Positions 5,582 to 46,000 of a stretch of 59,320 bases of DNA are shown here, piece after piece. Source of the stretch: an uncultured bacterium (GTDB taxonomy: Bacteria; Fidelibacterota; UBA2242); the NCBI GenBank assembly GCA_964485475.1, contig CAZAKB010000001.1, positions 1-59,320 of the forward strand, written 5' to 3'. Both the position numbers and the translations under genes were made by a program. Below the pieces are notes generated by a model, which searched no databases, had not been told where the DNA came from, and worked only from the letters and a program-made list of their open reading frames with translations. Numbering within the stretch: position 1 is the first letter of the stretch; every line of letters begins with the position of its first letter.

Positions 5582-5591
5582 ACAGACGATT

Positions 5592-6515: not shown

Positions 6516-6738
6516 TAAATCGTCGGATACATTAATCTTAATGGTTTACCTCACTTTAAAATGAACAGTTTCTTGATTCCCCTAGATCATCCTGACAGAA
6601 AAATAAGATATTTAGAATATTTATACAACTACAAAAAAACATATTATGAACATGTTCGTTGAAACAATAGTATTTTCTCCCAGATTTATTAATTTATCCA
6701 TGGGCAATAAAGAAAAAGATGGTTATATGAAAAACTTG

Positions 6739-6799
6739 TTGACTTTTACTTGCAAAGATTGCAAACTATGAAAGAATTAATATTTATGAATATATATTC
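6739..6799 (+). promoter_or_regulatory. Conserved promoter/operator block, copy 2, upstream of the TBDR operon
   Basis: TTGACT (6739-6744), 17 nt, CAAACT (6762-6767), 6 nt, then GAATTAATATTTATGAATATATATTC (6774-6799). The 26-mer matches copy 1 at 24 of 26 positions with identical spacing. Confidence 0.55.
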
Positions 6800-6928
6800 T
6801 ATACATTATCTCAGGTTATGCTAAAAAATAAAACACAAAAAATAAGCCAAACAAAAAACATCTCCCTAAATGATGATTTCAGGCTTTTACCATGTCAACT
6901 GATAATCATTTTATGAAAAGAATCCAGT

Positions 6929-9664
6929 ATGCTTAATTTGTCGGAGATTTTAATGAATAAACGATCTGTTATTGCTACTTTAATAATTACCGCTTTATTT
7001 CGGGTCGCTTTTTCGGGTACAACCGGTAAAATCAGCGGTAAGATTATAGATGCAAATACAAGTGAACCGGTTATTGGAGCCAATATCTATCTTGAAAATA
7101 CCGATTACGGTGCTGTATCCGACGTTGATGGAAATTATTTTATCATCAATGTCTCACCGGGAATGTATAGCCTGGTATGTTCATTTATTGGATATGAGAA
7201 AATCACATATACCGGGATTTCGGTCAGTGTGGACAGAACATCGTCGATGAATTTTGAAATTAAACCGGAAACGATTCAGGGCAAAGAAGTTATCGTTGTT
7301 GGTGAACGTAAAGTAATTGAAATGGACCGGACGAACACAGCTGCCTATGTCTCTTCCGAAAACATTGAAAAGATGCCAGTTCAGGAATTAGACGATCTGA
7401 TCCAGCTTCAGACTGGTGTTGTGAAAGATGCCAGTGGTGAATTCCATATTCGGGGTGGTCGGGCTGGTGAGATTGCTTACTTAATTGATGGTGTTCCCAT
7501 TACCGATCAGTACAATGGTGGCAGTTCAATCGGTCTGGAAAACAATTGGGTACAGGAACTTCAGGTTATCAGCGGCACGTTTAATGCTGAATACGGACAG
7601 GCTCAGTCCGGTGTGGTTAATATCGTGACAAAAGAGGGTGCTAAGCAATTTAAGGGAAATATTTCTGTTGCGATGGGGGATTATTTATCCACCCATAATG
7701 ATGTATTTATGAACATTGATCATCTGAACATAGGCGAAACGGATATTAGCACCAATCTTCAGGGACCATTTCCGATTATCCCAAAGGGCTCATTCTATAC
7801 ATCACTACGCTATTATACGACCGATGGGTGGCTATACGGACAACGGAACGTGCGGATTGAGGACACTGTGCCGATTCAGCAATATATTAACCAGGCCAAT
7901 AAAACGTATAGCTCAGATCAAACCCTATACGGAATTCCGATTTCCGATTCTTTGCAAACCGGTGATGGCGAATATATTCCAATGAACTGGAAGAACAAAC
8001 TTTCGTTCTATGGAAAATTGACCACAAAACTGGGTCCGGCGAAAATCAATTACTCACTATTTTATAATGACGATAAAAGTAAAAGTTATTCGGATGCTTA
8101 CCGATATGCTCCCGATGGTGTCCGGACGAATTATGGGACAAGTTTCAATCACATACTTAGTTTTAATCATGTGTTGAGCAACAGCACGTTTTATGTGTTT
8201 AATCTTTCATGGTACTCGAAAAACACCCAGGCCTATTTATTTGAAGATCCGCTGGATAACCGCTATCAAGGGGCGGCTTATTCTGCAGACGGATTTTCCT
8301 ATGGCGGAACACAAAAAGGACGGTATGATATTACCCGGTCGGCGATATCTTCCAAGTTTGACTTTACCAGCCAGGTGAATATAGCAAACCAGATTAAATC
8401 CGGCATTGAACTTAAACAGCATAATCTGAAATACATCCTTCTGGAAACAGTTGCAGAAGGTCCTACATATGAATATCCGGACTTACGCATTCCCGCTCAA
8501 ATTACAGTAGGAAACGATCGATATACAGTAAAACCGATGGAAGCATCGGCATACATTCAGGATAAAATTGAATTAAATGAATTGATAATGAATTTTGGGC
8601 TGCGATACGATTTCTGGGATCCCAATGCCGTCGTTCCGGATACTTTGCGGGCCGCAGCAGATTCAGGTACTATTCGACTTGGTACAACGTTCTCTGACGC
8701 CAAAACACAATCTCAAATCAGTCCCCGTTTTGGTCTTGCTTTTCCGATTTCCTCAAATGGTGTCATACATGCATCCTATGGACACTTTTTTCAGTTACCC
8801 CGCTTTGAAGCAATTTACAGTAATTATGAATGTGAGATCGAACTCGGCAGTTTACAGTCCAAACTCGGAAATCCAAATCTGAAACCTGAGAAAACAGTCA
8901 GCTATGAAATCGGCTTGCAGCAGGAAATGCTGGGACATTTTGCACTGGACGTGACGGTGTTTTACAAAGACATCAAGAACCTGCTCAGCCAGGAGATCGT
9001 GTCAACAATCGATAAAAAAGTATATGCTCGGTATATCAATCGCGACTACGGGAATGTTAAAGGATTTACAATATCCTTTAAAAAAGGCCGGGGATATTCC
9101 GATTTCATGTCCGCGTCGGTGGATTATACGTATCAGGTAGCCCGGGGAAATGCTTCTGATCCAAATGCGATATTTACAAATTTTCAATCCGATCCGCCGA
9201 AGGAGCCTGAAAAACAGGTATTACCGTTGGATTGGGACCAAACTCATACCCTGAATGCCTCTCTGGCTATTGGTAATCCCTCGGATTGGAACCTGGGAGT
9301 AATTGGACGGTTTGCGACGGGGCAACCATATACTCCCAAAAATCCTGGTAGTGCCCTGACAGCCCAATTTGAAAATAGCGACCGCAAACCTGTAACCTTT
9401 AATATTGATTTAACGTTCTACAAGTTCGTTTCATTGTCTGAATTCAAAGTCAAGTTGTTCTGTAAAGTATTTAATTTAACTGACCGATTGAATGAAATAA
9501 AAGTATATTCAGGTACGGGTAGTGCCGATTATAATTATCGGACAATGGCGGACCGATTGGCATTATTACGAAATCCGAATTTTACAATTAAACAAATTGA
9601 CCTTAGACCGGATTACTATTCTGAGCCGCGCAAAATTCTTGTTGGTATCAGCGTAGATTTTTAA
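6929..9664 (+). CDS. TonB-dependent outer-membrane receptor with an N-terminal carboxypeptidase-regulatory-like domain (SusC-like architecture)
   Basis: CarbopepD_reg motif: GKISGKIIDANTSEPVIGANIYLENTDYGAVSDVDGNYFI. Plug motif: HIRGGRAGEIAYLIDGVPI and NAEYGQAQSGVVNIVTK. The barrel ends in a terminal F. The start may be the internal ATG at 6953 (MNKRSVIATL). Confidence 0.85.
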   Translation: MLNLSEILMNKRSVIATLIITALFRVAFSGTTGKISGKIIDANTSEPVIGANIYLENTDYGAVSDVDGNYFIINVSPGMYSLVCSFIGYEKITYTGISVSVDRTSSMNFEIKPETIQGKEVIVVGERKVIEMDRTNTAAYVSSENIEKMPVQELDDLIQLQTGVVKDASGEFHIRGGRAGEIAYLIDGVPITDQYNGGSSIGLENNWVQELQVISGTFNAEYGQAQSGVVNIVTKEGAKQFKGNISVAMGDYLSTHNDVFMNIDHLNIGETDISTNLQGPFPIIPKGSFYTSLRYYTTDGWLYGQRNVRIEDTVPIQQYINQANKTYSSDQTLYGIPISDSLQTGDGEYIPMNWKNKLSFYGKLTTKLGPAKINYSLFYNDDKSKSYSDAYRYAPDGVRTNYGTSFNHILSFNHVLSNSTFYVFNLSWYSKNTQAYLFEDPLDNRYQGAAYSADGFSYGGTQKGRYDITRSAISSKFDFTSQVNIANQIKSGIELKQHNLKYILLETVAEGPTYEYPDLRIPAQITVGNDRYTVKPMEASAYIQDKIELNELIMNFGLRYDFWDPNAVVPDTLRAAADSGTIRLGTTFSDAKTQSQISPRFGLAFPISSNGVIHASYGHFFQLPRFEAIYSNYECEIELGSLQSKLGNPNLKPEKTVSYEIGLQQEMLGHFALDVTVFYKDIKNLLSQEIVSTIDKKVYARYINRDYGNVKGFTISFKKGRGYSDFMSASVDYTYQVARGNASDPNAIFTNFQSDPPKEPEKQVLPLDWDQTHTLNASLAIGNPSDWNLGVIGRFATGQPYTPKNPGSALTAQFENSDRKPVTFNIDLTFYKFVSLSEFKVKLFCKVFNLTDRLNEIKVYSGTGSADYNYRTMADRLALLRNPNFTIKQIDLRPDYYSEPRKILVGISVDF

Positions 9665-9709
9665 AAAGTGAATATTCAATATGAGCAGATGAAATAATAA
9701 ATAAGTGAA

Positions 9710-12700
9710 ATGAGGAATATGAGTCGCTATAAAAAAATATTGGTTACTCTGATAATATCGATGCTGTTGACAGGTTCCATGGCATTAGCGGGGCCGGAAC
9801 ACCGTCGTACCGGAATTCATAACGGAAATCTGGTCAATACGCGCTACTCAAATTTTGGCAACTTGGGAAGTCGGGATGAATATCCGAAGATGGAATGGCC
9901 CAAAGGTACCGGTTTTATTTATGGTTTCGAATTTATCATGGAGGCCGCCGCGGAAGTAGTAGATGCAAACGGCGTGACCGTCCAGATTACTTCTGAAAGC
10001 TACACTCATCCGACATCACACGATATATCTCTTGATGGTACACATCTATGGAATTGGGAACCGCTACCGGGATATTTTAACGAGAATACATCTGTTAATA
10101 AAGATGAGTTTCCGGCGATGAGTCATAAACCGGAAACCTGGCCAACATCCTGGCCCTATGATTATCCCGGTGATCCCGGAACTCGGGACGGCATGTGGAA
10201 TGGTGAATTCGGGGCCTATGTGCGTGCTGACCAGGAAAGTTATTATATGATTGATGACCGGAACAATGATGAATTTGAGTATTATCCCTTTATTAACAGT
10301 GCCATTGATTCCGGGGGCTATTATACCGGTGGCCGCAGAGGACTTGGTTTACAAGTAAGGGTACGTGGCTATCAATGGGCAGCTGTTGCTGCCGAGGATA
10401 TCCTGATTGTGCGGTATGATTTTAAAAATTACAGTCAAAAAGATTTACCGAAAGTTGTCTTTGGCATGTATGCGGATGTCATGGTCGGAGATTCAGGGGA
10501 TTCGGCTGATGATTTAGCCTATTTTGATGACATTGATGATATTGTTTATTGCTGGGATGCCGATGGTTTGGACATTCATAACCGTACGGGGCTGGGATAT
10601 TTTGGATACGCTTTTTTAGAAAGCCCTGGTGATCCTCTCAATGGTCTTGATGATGATGAAGATGGAATCGTTGATGAAGAGCAGGATAATGATCGTGGCA
10701 GCTTTGATGAAAGTTCCGGGCATTGGGAAGGTGACGAAGACGGTGACTGGCGCGATTATACAGATGTTAATTCTAATGGTATTTGGGATCATGGTGAGTT
10801 TATCGGTGATGACGTTGGGTCCGATGGAATTGGTCCCTATGACCAGGGATACACCGGTCCTGATACGGACGGTACCGAGGCAAATGGGATGCCTGATCAG
10901 GGCGAACCGAATTTTGGAAAAACCGATAACGATGAATCCGACCAGATTGGTCTGACCAGTTTTATTCTTGTGAATGCACAGAGTTTGAAATACGATGACC
11001 GCAATTGGCAACAAATGACGCCTGGTCTTTTTTCCATACCGCCGGTGACCAATCTCGCATTTGTTTATGGGTCGGGTTATTTTGAGTTGCCGGTTGATCA
11101 TACTCGCAAGTTTGCCATTGCCAATTTATTCGGAAATGACTGGGAAGACATTATCAAGAACAAACGAACGATGCAAAAGATATATGATGCGGATTACAGC
11201 TTTACCAAACCGCCCCTCAAACCAAATGTCAGGGCAGTTGCCAGAGATAAGATGGTTGTTTTAACCTGGGATAAGATGGCGGAGTTGTCTATTGATCCGA
11301 TCTACCGGGAAGATTTCGAGGGGTATTTGATTTATAAAGCAACCGATCCGTCTTTTAATGAAATTAAATCTATTACCGATGCCAATGGTAATGCACTTTA
11401 CTGGAAACCAATTGCACAGTATGATCGGAAAGATGGTCTTTACGGGCTGCATCCGATCACGATCGAAGGGACCGGAGTCCATTTTGATATGGGTACGGAC
11501 AACGGATTAAAATATCATTATATCGACACCGATGTGGATAACGGGCGTCGTTATTTTTATGCGGTTTGTTCTTATGACCGGGGTTATGATGAGGATTTTT
11601 ATGACCGTGGTATTTCAAGTGTTCAATACCTGGCTGCGGTCTATCCGACGGAATGCAGTAAAATTATTCAACTGGATGCTGTGGGCGAACTTGAGTTCGT
11701 GGATATTAATTGCGCCGTTGTGACTCCCAATGCAGGGAGTGCTGGATATGTTGAAGGCCAAATGGGTGGTGAATATGAGCACACCGGTCTGGCGACAGGA
11801 AACCTCGAAGTAAATTTTGCAATTCCCGATGATGTTCAGGATAATCATACCTATGAAATAACCTTTTCTGATACGACTGGAGGGCGTTTTACAAATGGAA
11901 TATGTATCAAAGATCTGACAGATGATGAAATTCTTTTTCTTAAAGATTTCTATGATGAATATGTTATCAGTGATGAAATTATTGAAGGCATGCGTTTTGA
12001 TCTGTACAACGATTCTTCATATGTGACGGAGCGTGGGTGGTTAATTGGAGATTGTAATCTGCCGTATACAGTTGGTCCCAGCAAGGATACCGCCAAGCGC
12101 AGAACTTTGCCCGAAGATATTGAAATCCGAGTACTGGAACCTAACGCTGATACGTCTTTTTTTAATCCTCTTGATACACAATCGAACCGGCCGGTAAATT
12201 TTCAGATATGGAGTGTCAGTTATAATCAAAAACTTGACTTTGCATTTTTTGAAACTACTAATAAAGATGGGCTGCTGAATGGCGGTGACCAAATCAGTAT
12301 TTGCCATGAAATACAAAATTTTGGTACAGCCTCTAAAATTGCCTGGATTTTTGAACTGGATACTCTAAGTAGTGGAATTGATCCGCAAGCCGGTGATGTA
12401 TTTTATTTTAATGTGACTAAACCTTTTAATGCAGGTGATACAATCAGGTTTACAACGAATGCATCGAAAATCGTTAATCAGAATGCCAAAGAAGAATTGG
12501 ATGATATTTATGTAGTTCCGGATCCCTACGTGGTTAGTGCTTCCTGGGAGAAACCGCTTTTTTATTCCAGTGGCCGGGGTGAACGCCGGATCGATTTTGT
12601 GAATCTACCTCAGGAATGTACAATCCGGATTTATACGGTTTCGGGGAAAATGATCAAGACGATTAAACATACTTCCGCAATGGCGTTGGGTGCGGAACCC

Positions 12701-12811
12701 TGGGACCTTGTTTCTGAAGATGGATTAACTGTGTCCTATGGGATATATGTTTTCCATGTGGATGCTCCGGGAATTGGTTCCAAAGTTGGCAAGTTTGCAT
12801 TGATAAAGTGA
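9710..12811 (+). CDS. Large secreted partner protein (1033 aa) with a D-rich Ca-binding repeat region, an FN3-like module and a variant T9SS-like C-terminal domain. Function is unknown.
   Basis: It has a signal peptide. It is a paralogue of 43068-46685, sharing the blocks AMSH..TWP, GLGL...VRG.QW, FLESPG, ESDQIGLTSF, KPNVR.VA.DK.V.L.WD, DFEGY.IY.ATDP and Y.YAV..YD. The C terminus reads VVPDPYVV...RIDFVNLPQECTIRIYTVSGK...YGIYVFHVDAPGIGSKVGKFALIK. Confidence 0.75.
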   Translation: MRNMSRYKKILVTLIISMLLTGSMALAGPEHRRTGIHNGNLVNTRYSNFGNLGSRDEYPKMEWPKGTGFIYGFEFIMEAAAEVVDANGVTVQITSESYTHPTSHDISLDGTHLWNWEPLPGYFNENTSVNKDEFPAMSHKPETWPTSWPYDYPGDPGTRDGMWNGEFGAYVRADQESYYMIDDRNNDEFEYYPFINSAIDSGGYYTGGRRGLGLQVRVRGYQWAAVAAEDILIVRYDFKNYSQKDLPKVVFGMYADVMVGDSGDSADDLAYFDDIDDIVYCWDADGLDIHNRTGLGYFGYAFLESPGDPLNGLDDDEDGIVDEEQDNDRGSFDESSGHWEGDEDGDWRDYTDVNSNGIWDHGEFIGDDVGSDGIGPYDQGYTGPDTDGTEANGMPDQGEPNFGKTDNDESDQIGLTSFILVNAQSLKYDDRNWQQMTPGLFSIPPVTNLAFVYGSGYFELPVDHTRKFAIANLFGNDWEDIIKNKRTMQKIYDADYSFTKPPLKPNVRAVARDKMVVLTWDKMAELSIDPIYREDFEGYLIYKATDPSFNEIKSITDANGNALYWKPIAQYDRKDGLYGLHPITIEGTGVHFDMGTDNGLKYHYIDTDVDNGRRYFYAVCSYDRGYDEDFYDRGISSVQYLAAVYPTECSKIIQLDAVGELEFVDINCAVVTPNAGSAGYVEGQMGGEYEHTGLATGNLEVNFAIPDDVQDNHTYEITFSDTTGGRFTNGICIKDLTDDEILFLKDFYDEYVISDEIIEGMRFDLYNDSSYVTERGWLIGDCNLPYTVGPSKDTAKRRTLPEDIEIRVLEPNADTSFFNPLDTQSNRPVNFQIWSVSYNQKLDFAFFETTNKDGLLNGGDQISICHEIQNFGTASKIAWIFELDTLSSGIDPQAGDVFYFNVTKPFNAGDTIRFTTNASKIVNQNAKEELDDIYVVPDPYVVSASWEKPLFYSSGRGERRIDFVNLPQECTIRIYTVSGKMIKTIKHTSAMALGAEPWDLVSEDGLTVSYGIYVFHVDAPGIGSKVGKFALIK
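10630..10960 (+). repeat. Acidic DxDxDG-type (thrombospondin-3/dockerin-like) Ca-binding loop region inside the partner protein
   Basis: LDDDEDGIVDEEQDNDRG...EGDEDGDWRDYTDVNSNGIWD...DDVGSDGIGP...PDTDGTEANGMPD...TDNDESD. The GAT/GAC-rich DNA produces spurious ORFs in other frames. Confidence 0.65.
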
Positions 12812-12841: not shown

Positions 12842-13915
12842 ATGCATAATACAATAAAGGGGTGGTCAGTAGTATTAATTCTGATTTTACTGGTTTTTAC
12901 CGGAACGATGGATAGCATTGCCCAGGAAGAACAAGATTATGCCGACCTTATATATACAGGTGATGTTACCAAAAAGGGATCCTCAACTGCCCAATTTCTG
13001 GAAATTGGAATTGGTGCGCGAGCATTGTCTATGGGCAGCGCATTTACTGCAGTTGCCGATGACGCAACAGCTCTTTATTGGAACCCGGCAGGCATTACCC
13101 AAATCGCAAGGGCCAGTGTCTCCGGTACCCATACGGAGTGGTTTGCCGATATGTCTCTGGACTATGTTGCGGCTCTGGTTCCGGTCAGTAATGGACAGGT
13201 ACTGGGCTTAAGCATGTCTGTATTTAATGCAGTCGATAAGCAGTTGGTACGGACAGTAAGTTATCCTGAGGGAACCGGTGAGTATTACAGTGCGGCGGAT
13301 ATTTCTTTGGCCCTGACATATGCCATTAAAGTCACTGATCGGTTTTCCGGTGGATTAACCGGTAAATATATCCGGCAGCAGATTTGGCATTCCAGTTCAT
13401 CGGGATTTGCCATGGATATCGGATTATTGTACAAAACACAATTCAAGGGATTGAATATGGGTGCAAGTATATCGAATTTCGGTACGGATATGCGCCTGAA
13501 TGGCCGGGACTTGCGAAGGGCCTACGATGAAGATCCCGTCCATTATTCCAATGATAAATTGAATGTAATGCTGGAAACCGATGCTTTTCCGTTGCCTCTT
13601 CTGTTCAGGTATGGACTGTCATATAGCTTCACACCGATTAAATACAACGATATTACTCTGGCTGTGGACTTACTCCATCCTAGCAGTAATGTGGAATATA
13701 TCAATATCGGCATGGAATATTTACTGGGTAAAATTCTTTTCCTTCGGGTTGGCTACGAATCTTTATTCGATTCCGAATCTGAAAATGGTTTGAGCTACGG
13801 TGCCGGTATAAATTACCATCTGTATCAACAAACCTCGATTAATTTCGACTATGCATACATTGATTGGGGACGACTGTCCTATGTACAGCATTTTACGATT
13901 GGATTAACATTTTAA
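12842..13915 (+). CDS. PorV/PorQ-family (UPF0164-like) outer-membrane beta-barrel protein
   Basis: It has a signal peptide. The hallmark N-terminal motif is GIGARALSMGSAFTAVADDATALYWNPAGI. Alternating beta-strand patterns follow and the protein ends in F. It is a paralogue of 41998-43056. Confidence 0.7.
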   Translation: MHNTIKGWSVVLILILLVFTGTMDSIAQEEQDYADLIYTGDVTKKGSSTAQFLEIGIGARALSMGSAFTAVADDATALYWNPAGITQIARASVSGTHTEWFADMSLDYVAALVPVSNGQVLGLSMSVFNAVDKQLVRTVSYPEGTGEYYSAADISLALTYAIKVTDRFSGGLTGKYIRQQIWHSSSSGFAMDIGLLYKTQFKGLNMGASISNFGTDMRLNGRDLRRAYDEDPVHYSNDKLNVMLETDAFPLPLLFRYGLSYSFTPIKYNDITLAVDLLHPSSNVEYINIGMEYLLGKILFLRVGYESLFDSESENGLSYGAGINYHLYQQTSINFDYAYIDWGRLSYVQHFTIGLTF

Positions 13916-18681: not shown

Positions 18682-20676
18682 ATGAGTAATATGAAATTAT
18701 TTAGTAATGCAGCAAAATGGCTTCCTTTTTTGACAGTAGTATTGACAATAAACGCAGTCGGTAACGTTCTATTCCGCTACAATTCGGATATTGAAGCCGA
18801 TTCACCGGTTCAGTCACCGGCTACACGAAATCAAATTACGATTCAGGAATATCTGCCGGAAAATGAAATTACTGCCAGGGGACCTTCCGGTTGGGGATTT
18901 GAAACGATGAATGTAACCCTTTTTGCCCGGGATTCATCCTGTATTTATTCACAGAATGAGATCAATACCACATTTTTCAACGATCATGCGATTTCCGGGG
19001 AAATTTGGATTAAACCATATTTATTGAATGGTAACCTGATGACCCTAGTTGACACTTATGGTGACAAGATAATATCTCTCTCGATTATTGACGGTAAAAT
19101 ACACTTTAAACGGAACCTTCAGAATTATATATTTGAGATTCAATCCCCGGATTTTTGTTCCCAGAATGAGTGGAATTATATTCACTGGATCAGTGGTACG
19201 GAAGAGGATACAATTTTCCAGAAACTGTATATTAATCGACAATTGGCTGTTGAGGAACGTCGGGCAATTATTCATTATCCACTTGGGTATGAAGTAATGA
19301 AGGGTTACCTGAAAATTGGTTTCGATGGTTCTTTGGCAAGCAGCGCTTATCGTGGTGAGATTTATGCGGTCGAATTGAAAAACATTGATTCTGGAAACGC
19401 CTATAATAATGCTTACTCCACATCCGATGGCAGCGCTTATTTCGGAATACCGGCATTCCGGTATTATGCCTCCGGTTCCTATATCAGACAAAAAACAATA
19501 AAGTCCTGCAAAGTCCCGGTGTTAAATACAATCTTTACTCCCTATATCAATGACGGCTATATTCCTCAGGGATTAACAAATTCCTATGAAGATGATCGAT
19601 TTAATGGTGACAGTGCTATGCTGTATTTAACGTTATATCATCGAACAATTACTGGAGAAATAGGGCAAAAACGGTCGCTTCTAGTGGAATTGGATCCCAA
19701 TAATGGCTATCAGGTTCGGCGATGCTTTCGCCTGAGCGCCGCTCTTGAAACCGCCCATGTTCCGGCAATGGCTTTTCGTGGTGGGAACATTATTATTACC
19801 AATGGCGGGGTCAGTTATAAACATGAAATCCCGGAATATAGTGGAGCCGGAACAGAGAAATATCAGACGCTGAATTATATCCGCTCAGTTAACATGTATT
19901 CCTCAAGTGCGACCTGTTATTCTGACTCAATCTGGTGCTGTACTTTGTTTGCTGATCAAGTCGGAGAGACTGCTTATCTCGCCGGATACCCGATTGATAG
20001 CACCGGTAATGTCAATCACACTGCGCCACCGAGGTACTACATGATGCCGATGTATGTTCAGGGTGCAGCGTGGACCCGATTCCAGGGTGAAGATTATCTT
20101 TTTGTTTCTGCCAGCTCCGGGGATAATGATTCAAAACTATATCGTTACTCACGAAAAAACCTATCCCGTTGGTTTTTAGCTGATCCCGACACGATATTTT
20201 ATTTACCTGCTGGAACGGAAGATGTGACATTTAACGAAAAAGGAAATTTACTGAACGTCTCGGAATCATCCGCGCTGTACTATTCCAGTCGGACTTCCAA
20301 TCCTTGGTCACAATTTTATCCATTTATTTTTGAAATCCAAAGAGATGTCCTGTTTGCAGATCTAATTAATGGAAGTACCGGCATTCGCTTGGAAAATCAT
20401 AGCACAATTCCCGATGATTTTGAGTTGTCTGCCTATCCAAATCCCTTCAACAACCAATTGAATATTCGGTACCAGATTAAGCCAGTATCAACTTCTCAAA
20501 TAAACATTTTCGACCTTAGCGGACGTTTGGTTGATTCATTTTCAAATATGAATACTACTAATTCCTATACTAATTATATCTGGAACGCTGCCAGCGTCTC
20601 TTCGGGTATTTATTTTGTTCAATTGATTGTAGATAGGATTCCAGCCCAATCAGAGAAAGTAGTTTTGCTTAAATGA
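18682..20676 (+). CDS. Secreted T9SS cargo with an N-terminal LamG-like domain, a central region of unknown function and a type-A CTD
   Basis: It has a signal peptide. A LamG-like pattern is present (ISGEIWIKP...WNYIHWISG...LYINRQL). CTD: AYPNPFNNQLNIRYQ...GIYFVQL...KVVLLK. Confidence 0.6.
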   Translation: MSNMKLFSNAAKWLPFLTVVLTINAVGNVLFRYNSDIEADSPVQSPATRNQITIQEYLPENEITARGPSGWGFETMNVTLFARDSSCIYSQNEINTTFFNDHAISGEIWIKPYLLNGNLMTLVDTYGDKIISLSIIDGKIHFKRNLQNYIFEIQSPDFCSQNEWNYIHWISGTEEDTIFQKLYINRQLAVEERRAIIHYPLGYEVMKGYLKIGFDGSLASSAYRGEIYAVELKNIDSGNAYNNAYSTSDGSAYFGIPAFRYYASGSYIRQKTIKSCKVPVLNTIFTPYINDGYIPQGLTNSYEDDRFNGDSAMLYLTLYHRTITGEIGQKRSLLVELDPNNGYQVRRCFRLSAALETAHVPAMAFRGGNIIITNGGVSYKHEIPEYSGAGTEKYQTLNYIRSVNMYSSSATCYSDSIWCCTLFADQVGETAYLAGYPIDSTGNVNHTAPPRYYMMPMYVQGAAWTRFQGEDYLFVSASSGDNDSKLYRYSRKNLSRWFLADPDTIFYLPAGTEDVTFNEKGNLLNVSESSALYYSSRTSNPWSQFYPFIFEIQRDVLFADLINGSTGIRLENHSTIPDDFELSAYPNPFNNQLNIRYQIKPVSTSQINIFDLSGRLVDSFSNMNTTNSYTNYIWNAASVSSGIYFVQLIVDRIPAQSEKVVLLK

Positions 20677-22244
20677 AACTTGTGTCAAAATTTCATTTAC
20701 CGGTCATGGTTATAGCAATATTATTGACTGCATCGTGCAGTAAACCACGGTTAGAGCCAGATTCACCAATTCTGGCAAAGGTCGGTGATAATCGGATTAC
20801 CGTAAAAAGTTTTACAGAAAGTTATAGCTTTGGCCCTTCCGTATTGAAAAGTGTTTCCGGTGCTAAAGAGAACTATTTAAAGGCTATGATAAACGAAGAA
20901 ATTCTGGCCCAATTACCGGAAGTGAATACGTTGCAGTCAAAACCAATCGTCCAAAAATCTTTGCGTTTACTGAAACAAGAATTGCTGGTTGAAAAATTAT
21001 TTAATGTTGAAGTTGGTGAAAAAGTATCTGTCAGCGACGAGGAGATTCGGGAAGCAGTTATTAAATCCGCTTATGAAAATAAAGTGAAGTACATCTATAC
21101 CGATGATCTTAAAGAGGCACAGCAATTTGAGAAAGAATTAAGTGCAGGGGCAGATTTCGACAGCCTGCTAGCGGGAAAACTCGGGCGAATAGGCATAACT
21201 CTTGAAAATGGCGAGACCGATTTTATTGGTTACGGTGAGCTGCAAGAGCCGTTTAACAAAACTATTTTTAATATTGAACTGAACGATGTTACCCCGATAA
21301 TTCCTAATGGTAAAGGCTATTACATCATCAAAAAAACAGATTCCCGCAAGATGATTATTTCGGAAATGGACTTTGCGACGTACAGGCACCGTTATGAGCA
21401 AATAATTCGTTATAAAAAGGACCGGGTCCAGACCGGCAAATTCCTGGCTGAATTTATGGATCCCAAAGAACTGATTGTGGACGGTAAGATTTTTACCACA
21501 TTGGTCAATACAATTTATCCGATTACTATTCAGTCACCATCGGATTCTCTTTTAACTCAAAACCAAAACGGAACTGACATTAGTCCATTTGGTCAAATAT
21601 CCAACAATCTCTTGGATTATTATGATTTGCCCGTAGTACGATTTAAAGGGGGGAATTGGACAGTCCGAGAACTACTGTATCATTTATCCTATCGGCCGCT
21701 TGATTTACGATCGACAAGCATTGAAGATTTTGCAGGAAAATTGCGGAGCATCATTGGCCTGACTGTGCGTGATGTATTTATGGAGGAAGAGGCGTTGAAG
21801 CGGAATTATGATCGTGATCCGCAAATTCGGTATGAATTGGACCGTTGGGAGCGGAAATACACGAGCCAGGTTTTTATAGATTCGATCAGGGCACAATGCA
21901 TTCCCGATGCTGCAGAAGTTCAATCACTGTTTAATAATTCCGCATATGGGTCAAATATTAAATTTAATCAGGTTGAGGTTTACTTAACGAACCTGATTAG
22001 GATGAAAAAGACCCATGGTCAGCTTAGAGAGTTAATTAATGCGAGTGGGATTGAGGTCACAACCTATCCTGAAAACTTGAAATCCGTTGAAGTCGATGAA
22101 CCACGAGCTGGTCGTTTACCGGATGTAAAACTGTATAAACTTGGTTTACCCTATTTTCGGGAAGCGTTTCCGACACCCGATATTTTATGGAGTGCCGATG
22201 AATTGTATCATAATATTTATCGGGAATCTGAACAATCAGAATAA
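20673..22244 (+). CDS. Parvulin-type peptidyl-prolyl isomerase lipoprotein (SurA/PpiD-like chaperone)
   Basis: Lipobox LTASC. It has an N-terminal SurA-like chaperone segment and a PpiC-like segment (GETDFIGYGELQEPFNKTIF...GKGYYIIKKTD). Its ATG overlaps the upstream stop (ATGA), which suggests translational coupling. Confidence 0.65.
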   Translation: MKLVSKFHLPVMVIAILLTASCSKPRLEPDSPILAKVGDNRITVKSFTESYSFGPSVLKSVSGAKENYLKAMINEEILAQLPEVNTLQSKPIVQKSLRLLKQELLVEKLFNVEVGEKVSVSDEEIREAVIKSAYENKVKYIYTDDLKEAQQFEKELSAGADFDSLLAGKLGRIGITLENGETDFIGYGELQEPFNKTIFNIELNDVTPIIPNGKGYYIIKKTDSRKMIISEMDFATYRHRYEQIIRYKKDRVQTGKFLAEFMDPKELIVDGKIFTTLVNTIYPITIQSPSDSLLTQNQNGTDISPFGQISNNLLDYYDLPVVRFKGGNWTVRELLYHLSYRPLDLRSTSIEDFAGKLRSIIGLTVRDVFMEEEALKRNYDRDPQIRYELDRWERKYTSQVFIDSIRAQCIPDAAEVQSLFNNSAYGSNIKFNQVEVYLTNLIRMKKTHGQLRELINASGIEVTTYPENLKSVEVDEPRAGRLPDVKLYKLGLPYFREAFPTPDILWSADELYHNIYRESEQSE

Positions 22245-38996: not shown

Positions 38997-41975
38997 ATGA
39001 AAAACCGGCTGCTGTTTTACCTGTTTTGCTGTTTGTTTCTGTTATCGGATCTACATGCCGGAGTCACCGGAAAAATTGCCGGTCGAATTATAGATGAACA
39101 TACTGGCGAACCCCTTGTAGGGGCCAATGTCATTATTATTGAAAAAACTGTGGATGGACAACTTGTGGCACTATCTCCTTCTTATCAACAAGGTGCTGCT
39201 TCAGATATAAATGGTGAATACTATATTCTGAATATTTCTCCTGGAATATATTCGGTCAAATTCGGATATATTGGATATCAATCGGTTATTGTTCCTGATG
39301 TTAGAATATCATCGGATATGACGACTCGAATAGACCGTGAAATGTCATCAACAATCATTGAAGCCGGTGAAGCGGTTATTGTTACCGGTGAACGGCGGGA
39401 AATCCAAAAGGACCTTACATCGTCTGAGGTCAGTATTGGAGCAGATCAGATTGGTGAAATGCCAGTACGCTCCGTCCGGGATTTGGTATCTTTGCAAGCT
39501 GGAGTTACACTTGATGCATCCGGGAATCTTCATATTCGTGGTGGTAGATCAACGGAAATTAGTTATATGGTCGATGGCGTTCAAATCCTTGATCCCCTGA
39601 ACCGGAGTTCGGGAATCAGTATCGATGATCAATCCATTGAAGAATTGAAAACAATTACTGGAACCTTTAATGCCGAATATGGTCAAGCCTTGTCCGGTGT
39701 CGTAAATATTGTTACGAAGCAGGGCAGTGATCAGTTTAAATTGAATTTGACAGGATATTTCGGGGATTATTACAGCACTGATTCCGATGTCTATTATGTC
39801 ATGAATAACTCGGAATGGGTAAATGCAGTGACCCATTTTGCCACCGGAGTGGATGAATCATTTAATTTCGATTTTCCGGGTTATAATCCGAATGATTCAG
39901 AAAACTATTTTAAGGATAAACCGTATCTGACGAAAAAATCTTATTTGAATACATACAATCCATTCCAGGCGAAGGATGTTCAGATGAATATTTCCGGTCC
40001 GGTACCATTGACTAATAAACGATTAACCTATTATGTTTCCGGGAGATATAACTATAATCCGGGATCCATATATGGAATACGTTATTTTATGCCCTGGGGA
40101 TTTCAATCACCGGTATCTAATACTATAAATTCCTTTCAAGAACCAGATAATGCATTGGTACCGATGCGTTCGTATGAAGGCTATTCGATGAATTCGAAAT
40201 TATTTTATAGATTATCAAATTCCGTCAATATCAGTTATGGAATTTATTATAATCATGATTCTGGAAATTATGGGTATAACAATCAATATAAATATATTCC
40301 GGATGCCCAGCGTCATTACCAGACCGATGCCTTTACTCATATTATTTCTTTAAAACAAACATTATCACCCAAAACATTTTATGATTTTAAAATCAGTTAT
40401 TACAATAAAGATCATTCCAATTATCTTTATAAAGATCCCGAAGATTATCGCTATATGCCGACTCAGTCCAGTGATTTTGAGATTTACGTTTTCGGATATG
40501 AAAACCAGGATAAAATCACAATGTGGTCTAATTCCTATGATTTTCTATATTGGGGAAATCCGGTAACCTATAGTAAAACAAATGTTCAGTATCAATCCTG
40601 TATGTTCGATTTGACAAGCCAAGTGACGAAACACCACCTGATGAAATTCGGATTTAAAGCGACTGCGCATAACCTGTTTTATAACCAATTCGATATTCAA
40701 TTCTCAACCAATGATTATCGCCCCTATGTACCATCGGACAATTCCCCGTATCATGTCAAATACAATGCAAAGCCGAAAGAATTTTCCGGATATGTTCAGG
40801 ATAAAATCGAGTTTGAGGAATTGGTTATTAATTTCGGTTTGCGGTTTGATTATTTTGATTCGGATGGTCGTGTTCTTGCTGATCTGCAAGATCCACAAAT
40901 TTATGATCCTTTTAAGATGAGTCACATCTATACAAATTACACATCTGATACACCGGATAGTGAATTGGTTGAATATGCTATTGCCGAACGGGAAGAATTT
41001 TGGTATCAAAACGTCAGCCCGAAATATCAGTTAAGCCCTCGATTCGGTCTGTCGTTTCCAATTACTGATCGGGGGGTGATTCATTTTTCTTACGGGCATT
41101 TTTTCCAAAACCCGGAATTCCGTTTTCTGTATGATAATCCAAATTTCTGGATTGAGGGTGCCGGAGCGGATAACCTGGTGGGAAACGCTGATCTGGATGC
41201 CGAACGTACCGTGATGTATGAATTGGGACTGCAGCAGCAATTATTCGATAATGTCTATATTCATGTGACAGGCTTTTACCGTGATATTCGGGATTGGATT
41301 GGTACCGGAAAACCTATTGACACTTATCAGGGGGTCACTTATTATAGATATGAAAATAAAGATCATGCATCCGCAAAGGGAATCACACTTTCGGGTAAAG
41401 CAAAATTCGGATATATTGCTTTAAATTTTGATTATACCTATATGACAGCACAAGGTACATCGTCCAATCCCCAAGATGAATACAATGATTCACAGTCAGA
41501 TAAAGCGCCACGTTTGACATTTATAAACCTGGATTGGGATCAGCGGCATTCATTAGGTACTGTATTAAATTATTCAAAAAATCAATGGTCATGGACATTA
41601 ACGGGTAGTGTAAATTCTGGTTTTCCTTACACTCCGGAATTTAGTCGAGGCGAGGTTTCAGGTTCTGGTACATTCGTTGGATTAACGGAAAATAGTGATC
41701 GGAAGCCGTGGACATACAACATGGATCTTCGCGTATCCCGAAAATTTAGTTTTGGAAAAGTTCGAATGACGATGTTTTTGAATATCAGGAATATTTTGGA
41801 CCAACGAAATGCCACAAGTGTGTATGCAGATACTGGATTACCGGATTACACATTACAGGGAATCACACAGAAAGACCGGGTCATTGAATTGTCCGATGTG
41901 GATGATTATTATGCAAATCCAAATTACTATAGTGCACCTCGTTTTATTCAATTCGGTCTGCGGATTGGATTATAA
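38997..41975 (+). CDS. TonB-dependent outer-membrane receptor with an N-terminal carboxypeptidase-regulatory-like domain, second copy
   Basis: Motifs are GKIAGRIIDEHTGEPLVGANVIII, HIRGGRSTEISYMVDGVQI and NAEYGQALSGVVNIVTK. It shares the barrel motifs SPRFGL.FPI...GVIH.SYGHFFQ.P with 6929-9664. Confidence 0.85.
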   Translation: MKNRLLFYLFCCLFLLSDLHAGVTGKIAGRIIDEHTGEPLVGANVIIIEKTVDGQLVALSPSYQQGAASDINGEYYILNISPGIYSVKFGYIGYQSVIVPDVRISSDMTTRIDREMSSTIIEAGEAVIVTGERREIQKDLTSSEVSIGADQIGEMPVRSVRDLVSLQAGVTLDASGNLHIRGGRSTEISYMVDGVQILDPLNRSSGISIDDQSIEELKTITGTFNAEYGQALSGVVNIVTKQGSDQFKLNLTGYFGDYYSTDSDVYYVMNNSEWVNAVTHFATGVDESFNFDFPGYNPNDSENYFKDKPYLTKKSYLNTYNPFQAKDVQMNISGPVPLTNKRLTYYVSGRYNYNPGSIYGIRYFMPWGFQSPVSNTINSFQEPDNALVPMRSYEGYSMNSKLFYRLSNSVNISYGIYYNHDSGNYGYNNQYKYIPDAQRHYQTDAFTHIISLKQTLSPKTFYDFKISYYNKDHSNYLYKDPEDYRYMPTQSSDFEIYVFGYENQDKITMWSNSYDFLYWGNPVTYSKTNVQYQSCMFDLTSQVTKHHLMKFGFKATAHNLFYNQFDIQFSTNDYRPYVPSDNSPYHVKYNAKPKEFSGYVQDKIEFEELVINFGLRFDYFDSDGRVLADLQDPQIYDPFKMSHIYTNYTSDTPDSELVEYAIAEREEFWYQNVSPKYQLSPRFGLSFPITDRGVIHFSYGHFFQNPEFRFLYDNPNFWIEGAGADNLVGNADLDAERTVMYELGLQQQLFDNVYIHVTGFYRDIRDWIGTGKPIDTYQGVTYYRYENKDHASAKGITLSGKAKFGYIALNFDYTYMTAQGTSSNPQDEYNDSQSDKAPRLTFINLDWDQRHSLGTVLNYSKNQWSWTLTGSVNSGFPYTPEFSRGEVSGSGTFVGLTENSDRKPWTYNMDLRVSRKFSFGKVRMTMFLNIRNILDQRNATSVYADTGLPDYTLQGITQKDRVIELSDVDDYYANPNYYSAPRFIQFGLRIGL

Positions 41976-41997
41976 CCTTTGATTTGGAGTAAAGTTG

Positions 41998-43056
41998 ATG
42001 AAACGAAAAAATGACCGGGAACAAAATAGTTTATTCAGATATGCTCTTCTGATTATTGTCTTTTGTTTTCAGATTCAGATTGTCACAGCCCAAACTGTTG
42101 CGAAAGTTGGTACTTCGGCGGCTAGTTTTCTAAAGATCGGAGTGGGTGGCCGTGCTCTGGGAATGGGCGAGGCTTATACAACCTGCGTCAATGATATTAC
42201 ATCAATTTTCTGGAATCCGGCCGGTCTGGCAAGCATTCAGAATACCCAGGTATTGTTAAATCATTATGATTATATCGCTGATGTAAATTACGAATATGGG
42301 GCAGTTGCTATGGCGATGCCTAATATTGGAACGATTGGCGCTCATATCAGTTTCCTTGGGATGCCCGATATTGAGCGAACAACGGTTTCGGAACCGGACG
42401 GGACCGGTGAAATGGTTGGTGCTTCATCAATGACGGCCGGAATCAGTTATGCACGGTTTCTGACTGATCGGTTTTCCATTGGGGCAACCGTAAAAATGAT
42501 CCAGGAACAGATTTGGCATTGTAGTGCAACTGGTTATGCAATGGATATCGGTGTCCTGTACCGTACATTTTTTAAAAATATTAAAATCGGAATGTCCATT
42601 TCGAATTTTGGAAGCAGCTTGCAGCTGGAGGGACGGGATTTACTGATTCAGCACGATATCGATGAACAAAGTGATGGAAACAACGCAAACATCAATGGGT
42701 ACCTGGCGACGGACAAATACACTATTCCAATATTATTCAGAGTTGGGATATCATCGAATTTGAGTAAAGATTTTCTCGGATTGAAAAATAATGATTTCAT
42801 CGTTTCTATCGATGCCGTCCATCCGAATGATAATTATGAATATGTAAATGCCGGACTTGAGTACCAGTTTAGACAATTACTTGCATTTCGGGTTGGTCGC
42901 AGGCAGATGTTTCTTAAAGATCGGGAGGGGGGCTTCAGTCTCGGATTCGGTTTACATCTGAATTTTAATAGTTATGACTTTTTTCTTGATTATGCCGCAG
43001 TCGATTTTGGCCGGTTGGATTATTTAAATAAATACTCACTGATTTTATCGTTTTAA
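41998..43056 (+). CDS. PorV/PorQ-family outer-membrane beta-barrel protein, second copy
   Basis: It has a signal peptide. The hallmark motif is GVGGRALGMGEAYTTCVNDITSIFWNPAGLA and the protein ends in F. The ORF track starts 3 nt earlier at a TTG. Confidence 0.7.
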   Translation: MKRKNDREQNSLFRYALLIIVFCFQIQIVTAQTVAKVGTSAASFLKIGVGGRALGMGEAYTTCVNDITSIFWNPAGLASIQNTQVLLNHYDYIADVNYEYGAVAMAMPNIGTIGAHISFLGMPDIERTTVSEPDGTGEMVGASSMTAGISYARFLTDRFSIGATVKMIQEQIWHCSATGYAMDIGVLYRTFFKNIKIGMSISNFGSSLQLEGRDLLIQHDIDEQSDGNNANINGYLATDKYTIPILFRVGISSNLSKDFLGLKNNDFIVSIDAVHPNDNYEYVNAGLEYQFRQLLAFRVGRRQMFLKDREGGFSLGFGLHLNFNSYDFFLDYAAVDFGRLDYLNKYSLILSF

Positions 43057-43067: not shown

Positions 43068-46000
43068 ATGAGAATAATGAAAAATAGATATTGGTTTTTA
43101 ATTTTACTTATCGTTCAAACGTCATCGATGGCTCAACTGACTCATGGTGATGCCCAATATCGAGCAAGAAATGTTCATTCCGGGAATTTGATCAGGATTT
43201 CCTTTTACAATCATGGAATGGTGGGACGGCAACGAGGGGACCAAAGTATCGTGTATCCCGGTGAATGGCCGATTAACAGTGGTATGGTACAGATGGGAAA
43301 TGCAACCAGTTATGTTGGCACTGAGATGCAGGTCTTTGCCGGACTGGATTCAACCGGTGATTCAACATTTACCTATATTACACCATTTTCAATGTGCCAG
43401 GGATACAATCCTGAGCGATTTGCCCATGACTCTCTTGGAAATTTTCTGGGATTTGAACCATTACCCGGATATTTGAATATGACTCAAAAGGAGGCAGATC
43501 CATATAATGCTGTGGCTATGAGCCATGAGGCGTTTACCTGGCCGGCTTACTGGCCGGATAAGATGGAAGACGGGATCGATCCGGGCTGGGCTGGGCACTG
43601 GAATGGTTATTTTGGAAAAGACCAGCGCAATGCCGATGAAGAAAGCTATTATGTGATGGATGACTACCAGTTAAAGAAAAAGGTTTCGGGTCATAGTATT
43701 CCATTACCGATTCCTTCAGAGCCATTACGGGGCGGATTAGGATTACGCCAGGAAGTCCGGGGATTACAATGGTCAAATCCCGATGCGGAAGATTGTATTT
43801 TCTGGATTTACGATATAAAGAATATCGGGAAAAAGGATTACCCGATGACGGTTTTTGGTCTGAATGTTGGCGCAGGAATGGGAAGTAATCTGGCCAGCTC
43901 CGCTTCGGACAATAGTGACGATTGTGCGACGTTTTATCGTGAAACGAATTTGACAGTCAATTATGATTGGGACAATATCGGAGCCGGAGGTTATTCGCCG
44001 GTTCCCTGGGTTGGTTTTGCATTTCTAGAAAGTCCCGGTAATGCCTATGACGGTATTGATAACGATGGTGACGGTTTGGATAATATCGGTGGTGGCAAAA
44101 TAATATCTACCGATGATTTTTATGCGACTTACGATGTTGGTGATCCGATTGTTATCATTAATTACTATAATTATAATCGGGAAGTATCTACAATGCCGGC
44201 GAACGGGATTTCTTTTACAGTCAATGGAAAGAAATATACAAAGTTACCGAATACACTTCTAGGTGAAATTCCCCGGAATGGTGTTGATGATAATCTGAAC
44301 GGCATTATTGATGAATCGGACGGTGCCCAGTTAACCGAGACTGAAGAATACTACTATTTATACATTCGGGATGCCAATTATAACAACCGGGATTATGTGG
44401 CTGTTGATTATTTCAGCGGGGCCGGTCTTGACAATACCATGATTGATGAACGTCGCGATGATGGCATCGATAATGATGGTGACTGGGATCCAAATGTCGA
44501 CGATGTGGGCTTGGATGGCAAATCCGGAACCGGAGATGAGGGAGAAGGTGACGGAATTCCAACTCCGGGATATGGTGATTTACCGGGCGAGACCAACATA
44601 GATGTTACAGATGTGGACGAGTCGGATCAAATCGGTTTGACCAGTTTTGTGTTTTATGTGTATGGGACATTGACATATAGCAATGATGCCGATATGTGGG
44701 ATGTTTCGAAACCGGGCTATTTTGATGCAAGTCTTGTCAATGTCGATGCAGATTATGTGTTCTCATGTGGCTATTTTCCCCTTTTATCCGGCCAGAGTGA
44801 GTTTTTCTCGATTGCACTTATTTACGGTTGGGACAGGGATGATATTATTCGAAATAAACAGATTGTCCAGAAAATCTATGATTCAAATTATAATTTTGCG
44901 ATAGCGCCGGAGAAACCGAATGTTCGGGTTGTTGCAGGAGATAAAAAGGTCACCCTGTACTGGGATGAAAAATCAGAACTCAGTTTCGACCGTTATTTGA
45001 AAGAATATGATTTTGAAGGGTATAAAATTTACCGGGCAACCGACCCCGGTTTTTCCGATGCCGGTTCAATTACCGATGGATATGGATATAACCGGTTTAC
45101 CGTGCCGATAGAGACCTATGACAAAGTGGATAGCGTGTACGGATTTTTCCCGGAAACCTTCGGAACTGGTGTGCAATTCAACCTCGGAAGTGAAACAGGT
45201 TTGGTACATGCTTATGTTGATTCGCCGTTGGTGAATGGGAAACGTTATTATTATGCGGTTACTGCCTATGATAAAGGCGATATTGAAAAGAATATTTCTC
45301 CATCGGAAACAAATAAATATGTCACTATTGATGCCTCTGGAACCGTTACGACCGGTGAAAATGTGGTAACTGTTATTCCTCAGGCTCCGTCGCTCGGATA
45401 TAGTCCACCCGAGTTTGATACACAGCCGGAAGCGGTGGGTACAAGTATTTCTACCGGACAGGTGTATGTCAGTTTTATTGAACCCGATTCAATATATGAT
45501 AATCAGGAATACGAAATTCGATTTCTGGATCAAAGTATGGATAAACGTGATAACGATTGTGATTCATTAATTGATGGGCTGGATGATGATGAGTTACTAC
45601 CAACATTGACAACCGGATTTGTGATTGAAAACCTGACCCGTTCCGAAATTTTGGATACGGTCTGGATTTATGATTACCGTTATGAAAATGATAATTGGAT
45701 ATTGGTGAAAAATTTGTATAATGATGCCGATGGCAATCCAAATACTCTGACGACAATTGTCAATGGAATTCAATATTCCGTTTACAATCCATCTCCCGGT
45801 ATTATTAATATTCCGGGAAAGGCTATTTACAATGGGATTCAGTGGAGCGATTCGATTGACTATTCAACGGCATATAATGTACTGTTTTCAAGGTTCGAAC
45901 TGGGTGGATTTAACTCCGGTATCGATTATCCTCGTCAATACAAGATCATCTTTTATGATGACATTATCGGAAAATCTGAAACAGTTTACCCGATTTTGAA

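Follow-up and report, generated by a model that had tools for sequence, protein, structure and literature searches.

Here we describe a family of large, uncharacterised proteins encoded beside TonB-dependent receptors, starting from two members in a stretch of 59,320 nucleotides (the window) of contig CAZAKB010000001.1, from the genome assembly of an uncultured bacterium (GCA_964485475.1; GTDB Fidelibacterota, UBA2242). The window is AT-rich (GC 34-45%), carries nearly all its genes on the + strand and, from Pfam annotation of its open reading frames (ORFs), comprises two regulated nutrient-utilisation loci, at ~5.6-34 kb (locus 1) and ~34.6-59 kb (locus 2). In locus 1, a TonB-dependent receptor with a CarboxypepD_reg N-domain, plug and barrel (6929..9664, +; PF00593 1.9e-28, PF07715, PF13715) is followed by large protein A (1033 aa; 9710..12811, +) and by a barrel of the PorV/PorQ family (12842..13915, +; NF033709 7.5e-61, 206 bits against a cut-off of 90). 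Locus 2 holds a second such set, module B, in the order receptor, barrel, large protein: a receptor (38997..41975, +; PF00593 2.6e-23, Plug, CarboxypepD_reg), a PorV/PorQ-family barrel (41995..43056, +; NF033709 5.5e-53) and large protein B (1205 aa; 43068..46685, +). The gene of a SurA-like peptidyl-prolyl isomerase (PPIase) lipoprotein (46687..48099, +; Rotamase_3 9e-13, SurA_N_3) begins 1 nt past the stop codon of protein B; locus 1 has a SurA-like lipoprotein of its own further downstream (20673..22244, +; Pfam Rotamase_3/Rotamase_2). A and B are collinear paralogs, as a first-pass annotation of the window had proposed (BLASTP E 7e-92, 32% identity over ~890 columns), the acidic loop region being longer in B. 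Ten of the twelve shared motifs quoted there occur exactly in both proteins; two were off by one residue in spacing, and their corrected forms in A and B are AMSH...TWP..WP and R...F[IV]NLP..CTIRIY. The family is indeed uncharacterised, but "giant" was a generous label for chains of 1033 and 1205 aa. The closest relatives of protein A come from metagenome-assembled genomes (MAGs) of Candidatus Neomarinimicrobiota/Marinimicrobia. Both proteins end in a variant of the type-A C-terminal domain (CTD) that marks type IX secretion system (T9SS) cargo, and this tail, together with the constant company of receptor and barrel, is the basis of the interpretation developed below.

The receptor, large-protein and barrel genes

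The arrangement recurs well beyond the window. We ran hidden Markov models (HMMs) for body, tail, receptor and barrel on the six-frame ORFs of fetched loci, and counted 54 family genes flanked by no less than 3 kb of sequence upstream and 2.6 kb downstream. In essentially every locus the order is receptor, large protein, PorV-like barrel, all on one strand. A receptor lies upstream of the large-protein gene in 54/54 cases; the barrel gene directly adjoins it in 52/54 and belongs to the same cluster in 54/54. The barrel is one or two genes off in locus L022 (receptor, barrel, type-A protein, large protein) and in L056, where two large-protein genes stand in tandem. Gaps between the large-protein and barrel genes are mostly of -45 to +47 nt, two or three tandem modules occur in several loci (L020, L034, L036, L051 and L081), and independent look-ups in genomes of 3-5 Mb returned the same arrangement. 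Of 83 loci, 56 also encode a SurA-like PPIase (10207-11700 in L060, for one), usually just after the barrel gene or between the large-protein and barrel genes, and both copies in the window have lipoprotein-type N-termini (IFGC|SDRNDP in module B; LTASC|SKPRLEPD, with lipobox LTASC, in locus 1). The acidic residues after the Cys of these two copies resemble the surface-lipoprotein rule for subunits of the β-barrel assembly machinery of Bacteroidota.

The members of the module also diverge in step. Over 59 modules, distance matrices correlate strongly between receptor and large protein (r 0.95), large protein and barrel (0.88) and receptor and barrel (0.92), with a Mantel p of 0.001 for the first two, which were the pairs tested. 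Between modules A and B, the three core proteins share 37%, 37% and 39% identity. Correlated distances and matching identities thus indicate that the module has duplicated, and diverges, as a unit. By the models that define known families, its components are less easily placed. The barrels beside A and B match NF033709 with 181-206 bits (cut-off 90), a result that speaks for linkage of the genes and not for binding, and module barrels score below the equivalog cut-offs of PorV, PorQ and PorV2. The module A receptor reaches 88 bits against TIGR04056 (SusC), for a cut-off of 368, and only its residues 34-248 align.

A variant tail of the type-A class

The first-pass annotation had described the tail as akin to a type-A CTD and yet distinct from it, and both halves of that statement are borne out. 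The tail reaches the stop codon in both proteins. In A (12494..12811, +) it reads VVPDPYV ... SGRGERRIDFVNLP..CTIRIY ... GKFALIK, and in B (46368..46685, +) VVPNPYV ... GRGPREIHFINLP..CTIRIY ... GRLLIIK, with VVP[DN]PY, G.Y.[FY]HV and G[KR]..[LI]IK as the common motifs. The terminal domain is of ~100-105 aa in both proteins, as annotated, but its coordinates had been placed 1-2 nt out of frame; in frame they are 12494-12808 (A) and 46368-46682 (B). Counted from the PNP/PDP motif to the stop codon, the tails of A and B measure 97 aa, against 78-83 aa in the six type-A CTDs of the window. When 27 variant tails were aligned to those six type-A tails with hhalign, the match had a probability of 93.5% (E 2.2e-7), with an alignment that spans the last 58 columns only. 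Of the type-A motifs, the variant retains PxP[FY] at its start, GxY and the terminal K/R-x-x-x-I-K; the terminal Lys is the one CTD position reported to be conserved and functionally important for translocon binding (PMC10994853). On this profile comparison, the variant tail is homologous to type-A T9SS CTDs.

The standard models, nonetheless, do not recognise it. TIGR04183 gives 13.8 and 13.5 bits on A and B for a cut-off of 23, and all 27 family tails fall below that cut-off (best E 1.5e-4); PF18962 run on the tails alone reports nothing even at E values up to 10. The type-B model TIGR04131 matches 2/27 tails (best E 0.0055) without reaching its family cut-off, and CHU_C (PF13585) gives E 0.17 and 12.5 bits for a cut-off of 27. 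The separation is sharper still with HMMs that we built locally for variant tails and for type-A tails from the same loci. The variant HMM scores 130-190 bits on 93 variant tails and at most 27 bits on 101 type-A tails; conversely, the type-A HMM scores 48-125 bits on the type-A tails and at most 25.7 bits on the variant ones. The scores are bimodal, with weak reciprocal cross-matches of 18-27 bits and no intermediates among these 93 and 101 tails. By these scores, the variant tail is a discrete subclass of type-A-related CTDs. After the first strand, it carries a conserved insertion of ~15 aa (SWEKPLF..SGRGERR, with an invariant E..GRG.R) that has no counterpart in type-A tails. AlphaFold2 folds the tail of A as a β-sandwich (strands 934-937, 960-964, 969-976, 981-988, 996-999, 1011-1019 and 1023-1031), with disorder predicted for the invariant loop at residues 941-956 (predicted local distance difference test, pLDDT, <50); an invariant loop modelled as disordered fits a partner-binding surface. 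Of the NCBIfam models and solved structures related to T9SS, those of the PorU and PorZ C-termini match the tail with the lowest E-values, a resemblance that we take only as a hint. Designed WD40 repeat proteins, the top matches of the tail profile in the PDB, were set aside as artefacts made up of sums of many 3-bit repeats.

Could these proteins nevertheless be ordinary T9SS cargo, in which the tail has drifted within one family and is cleaved, the protein then being released or lipid-attached and the barrel being a FadL-like channel or a general PorV paralog? The homology to type-A CTDs and the retention of their key motifs would agree with this, as would the FadL-like character of PorV/PorQ-family barrels (Pfam Toluene_X matches). 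However, one would not expect a transient signal to be conserved above the rest of a protein, and here identity in the tail exceeds that in the body in 74/74 orthologs of protein A (63% vs 45%). Two type-A cargo proteins of the same loci behave otherwise: tail and body are at 43% vs 45% and 27% vs 28%, and the tail is ahead in only 7/17 orthologs. The insertion with its invariant E..GRG.R, unmatched in type-A tails, and the strict one-to-one linkage to a barrel, maintained through several phyla and in loci that differ in substrate, also argue against simple drift, which we consider rather improbable. Being the best-conserved part, the tail would be better understood as a permanent and specific binding surface than as a signal cut off after transport.

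The tail had also been predicted to be restricted to the partner of the receptor. Wherever a true variant tail occurs in the 83 loci searched with the family profiles, its protein also has the family body. Two ORFs that seemed to carry the tail without a body (L022 4311-6722 and L055 910-1515) proved to have ordinary YPNPFNP type-A tails cross-matching at 23 bits. A profile search of 1.84 billion representative proteins yielded 222 proteins at E up to 1e-30, and agrees with the loci: the best 150 of the 222 comprise 42 full-length family members, 95 C-terminal fragments that still match the body HMM, 6 tail-only fragments, 5 proteins with no true variant tail (4 with tandem FlgD_ig-like repeats and 1 split match) and 2 short sequences, ambiguous, that carry the tail and no body match, probably as fragments starting in the variable or acidic region. 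Thus, 143 of these 150 are family members or their fragments. The four repeat proteins (P0121, P0122, P0123 and P0201; 1800-2400 aa) were rejected as carriers of the variant tail; they carry 12-15 tandem CTD-like/FlgD_ig-like β-sandwiches. The first three head the tail-profile search and P0201 stands lower; in them the CTD fold is used as a repeat array rather than as a terminal signal. The first-pass annotation had named in advance two outcomes that would speak against its proposal, namely a tail scoring like any type-A CTD and a tail present on many unrelated proteins; we examined both and observed neither. In sum, the variant shares with the ordinary type-A CTD (TIGR04183/PF18962) a C-terminal β-sandwich of ~7 strands, the PxP[FY] and GxY motifs and the K/R...K end; unlike it, the variant lies below both cut-offs, forms a score class of its own, carries the insertion, is tied to one family and out-conserves its body.

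The body and its family

A and B begin with a signal of the signal-peptidase-I type and no lipobox Cys; in A, the predicted Sec signal peptide is MRNMSRYKKILVTLIISMLLTGSMALA|GP. The full-length AlphaFold2 model of A, built from 40 sequences, is an all-β multi-domain chain with a mean pLDDT of 68.8. Foldseek searches with it returned generic FN3/Ig tandem matches with template modelling (TM) scores below 0.1, so that this model is uninformative on the body; PorZ is also among the matches. In contrast to the full-length chain, residues 27-507 (9788..11230, +) are modelled as a confident N-terminal domain from 104 sequences (mean pLDDT 88.9, pTM 0.90). Its Foldseek matches, with probabilities up to 1.0 and TMq 0.31-0.37, are the β-supersandwich N-terminal domains of GH94 phosphorylases, GH116 glucosidases, cyclic glucan synthase and other glycan-active enzymes, and the YidC P1 domain. 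The part matched in those enzymes is a non-catalytic, often carbohydrate-contacting module. Neither AlphaFold2 nor Foldseek predicts an (α/α)6 or other catalytic domain after it.

Inside this domain lies an acidic insert (residues ~307-413; 10628..10948, +), up to 40% D/E and nearly devoid of K/R, that in A terminates in the invariant ESDQIGLTSF. In the alignment of 40 family sequences, many of its D and G columns are invariant. Each protein has two strict DxDxDGxxD motifs, those of A at residues 314 and 352. A looser form of the acidic motif occurs 2-3 times per protein, against ~0.5-0.6 times in shuffles; since single shuffles reach 5, this count is not compelling by itself. Pfam scans gave no TSP_3 or dockerin match to the large proteins. 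Calcium binding by the acidic loops is plausible from these motifs. The next segment (residues ~505-625; 11222..11584, +) had been annotated as an FN3-like module. Such a module would agree with an FN3-like strand pattern in the AlphaFold2 model, with low-TM Foldseek matches of the full-length model to FN3 tandems and with a weak PDB profile match (3mpc, an Fn3-like protein; E 0.42); Pfam fn3 itself matched neither in single nor in member-by-member scans. Conservation is uneven along the chain. Residues 26-675 and 926-1033 show column conservation of 0.65-0.85, against 0.40-0.56 in the further β-sandwiches of residues 676-925 (11735..12484, +), the least conserved part, and A and B are only 12-22% identical over residues 751-900. 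We propose, on this pattern of conservation, that the variable region (residues ~676-925) is the substrate-specific part.

The invariant residues of the family alignment include H37, E62, E82, D174, E176, D183, E229 and D230. So many invariant His, Asp and Glu, in a domain whose fold matches come from carbohydrate-active enzymes, could point to a new family of secreted or surface enzymes (hydrolase, lyase or phosphodiesterase) with its catalytic site in the N-terminal domain. Yet it is only the non-catalytic N-terminal sandwich domains of those enzymes that match, with no catalytic domain predicted, and the conserved acidic residues lie largely in the loop region, as would fit metal binding. 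Furthermore, close paralogs serve loci for unrelated substrates (mannan in one case, glycerophosphodiester or phospholipid in the other), which points to a generic role. We therefore hold an enzymatic function to be quite improbable.

The family is large and its similarity far beyond chance. A word-indexed search of 5.8 billion proteins found at least 2,678 significant relatives, and the best 120 of them are nearly all full length, at 43-93% identity. The 40-sequence alignment has a mean column identity of 49% and ~150 invariant columns. None of the best 120 relatives carries a precomputed Pfam domain, and every named one is a "hypothetical protein". The body found no match in Pfam, NCBIfam or PDB sequences, whether searched as single sequences, as a 40-member profile or member by member; the label "uncharacterised" therefore holds, given the libraries used and their dates. 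A weak Pfam match to LysM1_NFP_LYK in 27/40 members (best E 0.0022) was treated as noise. With the tail as query against one genome per species, we obtained at least 600 matching stretches, in Neomarinimicrobiota, Rhodothermales, Ignavibacteria/Melioribacteraceae, Calditrichia, KSB1, Stahlbacteria, Delongbacteria and unclassified "Bacteroidota" MAGs. The feature is real, robust and widely conserved. In the freely accessible literature that we searched, no description of the module was found, nor do the papers on the genomes of Melioribacter and Caldithrix refer to it. A longer sub-type of the family (1578-1618 aa) occurs in L015, L036, L051 and L064. In L036 and L051 the receptor is also unusually long (1128-1149 aa) and a normal-sized module stands in tandem; the L064 receptor has an ordinary length (925 aa) and the L015 one is truncated by the contig end.

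Utilisation loci and a putative surface capture module

The two loci of the window appear to handle different substrates. Besides module A, locus 1 encodes a SorC-type regulator, T9SS-tailed LTD/Laminin-G and metallophosphoesterase proteins, two GDPD phosphodiesterases, a Zn phospholipase C, the SurA-like PPIase, a sugar-type ABC transporter and an FGGY kinase. Around orthologs of module A (e.g. L001, L002 and L085) we repeatedly find GlpD-like dehydrogenases, GDPD, PhoD or metallophosphoesterases, a GDSL lipase, LTD/Laminin-G T9SS proteins, a UgpB-like ABC system and Zn phospholipase C. From these genes, the module A locus, taken over 373-34000 of the window, looks like one for uptake of a glycerophosphodiester or phospholipid, or possibly of a teichoic-acid-like substrate. 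Locus 2, taken over 34658-59320 and with a LacI regulator, a CBM9 T9SS protein, module B and its SurA-like PPIase, an N-acylglucosamine-2-epimerase-like protein, GH130, a T9SS-tailed GH26 mannanase, a T9SS-tailed metallophosphoesterase and an incomplete CBM35/esterase ORF, is by gene content (CBM9, GH26, GH130, epimerase) a mannan utilisation locus without SusD. Indeed, neither locus 1 nor locus 2 contains a SusD homolog. A census of 95 flanking ORFs counted ABC permeases (16), type-A tails (15), solute-binding proteins (12), PPIases (8), GH130 (5), LacI (3), GH5 (3), GH2 (2) and CBM9 (2), and SusD is absent from its 25 commonest neighbour families. Module loci look, in their predicted contents, like polysaccharide utilisation loci. 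That one protein family serves loci for chemically unrelated substrates suggests a generic structural or binding role, with substrate specificity in the variable region.

The type-A-tailed enzymes so abundant in these loci (the 15 neighbour ORFs just counted, six in the window) could instead suggest that nearby T9SS-secreted enzymes are attached to, or scaffolded by, a locus-specific platform of large protein and barrel, the receptor importing their products without contact. Parallels would be PorZ-PorQ, as part of the attachment complex, or a scaffoldin that docks through calcium-dependent loops. The weak best matches of the tail to PorZ and PorU, the presence of PorZ among the Foldseek matches of the full-length model and the acidic DxDxDG loops, reminiscent of calcium-dependent docking modules, would all accord with it. 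Nevertheless, it is receptor and barrel that are the invariant neighbours, while the enzymes vary between loci; Pfam/NCBIfam scans detected no dockerin, TSP3 or PorZ-body similarity; and the three module proteins diverge in step. On balance we think a scaffold unlikely.

We favour a model in which a TonB-dependent receptor, a large protein and its own PorV/PorQ-family barrel, usually with a SurA-like lipoprotein chaperone, act together at the cell surface. The large protein would be exported by Sec through the N-terminal signal peptide that is seen in its sequence. The T9SS translocon would then recognise the type-A-like CTD, homologous to known signals and presumed to work like them, and move the protein across the outer membrane. 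The carrier at this step may be the cognate PorV-like barrel instead of the housekeeping PorV, as suggested by gene linkage and by the published idea of alternative carriers, which have been anticipated for non-type-A tails (PMC10994853). The tail would stay on the barrel uncut, anchoring the large protein beside the receptor; the strong constraint on the tail, its private insertion loop and the PorZ-PorQ and PorU-PorV precedents argue for this step. Retention on the PorV-like barrel is also the fate that the first-pass annotation had suggested, and both the strict gene linkage and the co-divergence are consistent with it. Finally, supersandwich, acidic loops and FN3-like module would form a platform at the receptor, and the variable region would capture the locus-specific substrate and pass it on: mannan fragments in module B, a glycerophosphodiester or phospholipid-derived compound in module A. 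What suggests the partnership with the receptor, as its substrate-capture or lid subunit, is where the gene lies, the co-divergence, the lack of SusD in the setting and the conservation of both ends around a variable middle; in it, the large protein would fill the place that SusD has in Bacteroides utilisation loci. The parts of this model differ in strength. The large protein is very likely a T9SS surface protein. Anchoring by the barrel is somewhat favoured, and to the same degree we lean towards a partnership with the receptor. The whole chain, from T9SS export to a barrel-held substrate-capture subunit, we regard as finely balanced.

Several points weigh against this model. Surface location, T9SS dependence, retention of the tail and coupling to the receptor are all things that we infer, and that a T9SS core is present is deduced solely from the window's six ordinary type-A tails. 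Many glycoside hydrolases and lyases share the supersandwich fold, so that the protein may have an enzymatic or other role. Correlated distance matrices are no proof of contact, since any set of genes passed on as one operon would be expected to show them. The 80 fetched loci are the closest tail matches and so are mostly orthologs of protein A, leaving divergent paralogs under-sampled. The PorU and PorZ tail matches are weak (15-19 bits) and barely above those of generic type-A models. Lastly, a short KSB1 contig (L084) ends without a PorV-like gene behind the large-protein gene. The receptor of that contig is split into two ORFs (4146-6944 and 6998-10339), and the contig also holds DHDPS-like, SSF transporter and DeoR genes and FG-GAP/ASPIC T9SS proteins.

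Known systems offer partial parallels. The tails of PorU and PorZ stay uncleaved on PorV and PorQ, respectively, and it has been proposed in a review that cognate PorV-like barrels shield tails from cleavage (PMC10202324). As in these pairs of the Porphyromonas gingivalis attachment complex, the module pairs the gene of a protein with a type-A-like CTD with that of a PorV/PorQ-family barrel. However, PorZ has a body of β-propellers and PorU is a peptidase, to which the body of the large protein is unrelated; the module barrel falls short of the PorV and PorQ equivalog cut-offs; and the pair is multi-copy and placed beside TonB-dependent receptors in nutrient loci, rather than being a single part of the secretion machinery. 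In type-B cargo (e.g. SprB-SprF), the tail is thought to be uncleaved, with a cognate barrel anchoring the cargo (PMC10202324). Type-B systems with PorP/SprF-like barrels resemble the module in that the genes of cargo and dedicated barrel are clustered; in contrast to them, the module tail is not type B, its barrel is of the PorV/PorQ family and not PorP/SprF, and its cargo is no gliding adhesin. With SusC/SusD, RagAB and BtuBG, the module shares a CarboxypepD_reg receptor gene followed directly by the gene of a large candidate surface protein, set in a regulated locus that also encodes secreted glycoside hydrolases and transporters of the inner membrane. Yet SusD is an α-helical lipoprotein, whereas the large protein is predicted to be all-β, of 1000-1600 aa, with a Sec signal and a T9SS-type tail; the module receptor stays short of the SusC family cut-off; and the module adds a barrel and a SurA-like gene. 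The proposed module would unite two known principles, a TonB-dependent transporter with a surface partner (SusCD, RagAB, BtuBG) and a T9SS protein kept in place by its cognate PorV-like barrel (PorZ-PorQ, PorU-PorV and the type-B/PorP pairs). By their defining models, it belongs to none of the families compared.

If the proposed model is correct, it links TonB-dependent uptake and type IX secretion, so far studied apart in Bacteroidota-related bacteria. It would also add to PorZ-PorQ and type-B/PorP a third case in which a barrel carries or anchors one specific cargo, here through a type-A-derived tail that serves as a permanent anchor. Furthermore, it would account for SusD-less utilisation loci in abundant marine and sediment lineages that are mostly uncultured, Marinimicrobia (SAR406) among them, and would bear on how roles in carbon and phosphorus cycling are read from metagenomes. 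More tentatively, and with more doubt than confidence, the four-gene module may represent an unrecognised architecture of TonB uptake, an alternative to the lipoprotein SusD and the chief means by which Marinimicrobia, Ignavibacteria, Calditrichia, Rhodothermales and KSB1 capture polymers and organophosphates. In practical terms, the recognisable family and tail could serve to annotate thousands of "hypothetical" genes and to flag substrate-uptake loci. MAGs assigned to Melioribacter roseus and to Caldithrix hold the module, and both groups have cultured representatives.

Some minor features of the window complete its description. An Rfam scan of the window found no RNA families, and a promoter/terminator scan did no better than shuffles. 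The first-pass annotation had counted seven other cargo proteins with type-A CTDs; such cargo is present, in six complete copies. The ORF at 56503-59319 (+), of at least 939 aa, leaves the window end and combines a CBM35, a metallo-β-lactamase fold and an esterase/α-β-hydrolase; it may be the seventh, with its C-terminus beyond the window. In locus 1, a Zn phospholipase-C-like ORF (22248-23078) and a solute-binding ORF (22996-24546) share 83 nt, and the GTG start of the latter was probably called too far upstream.

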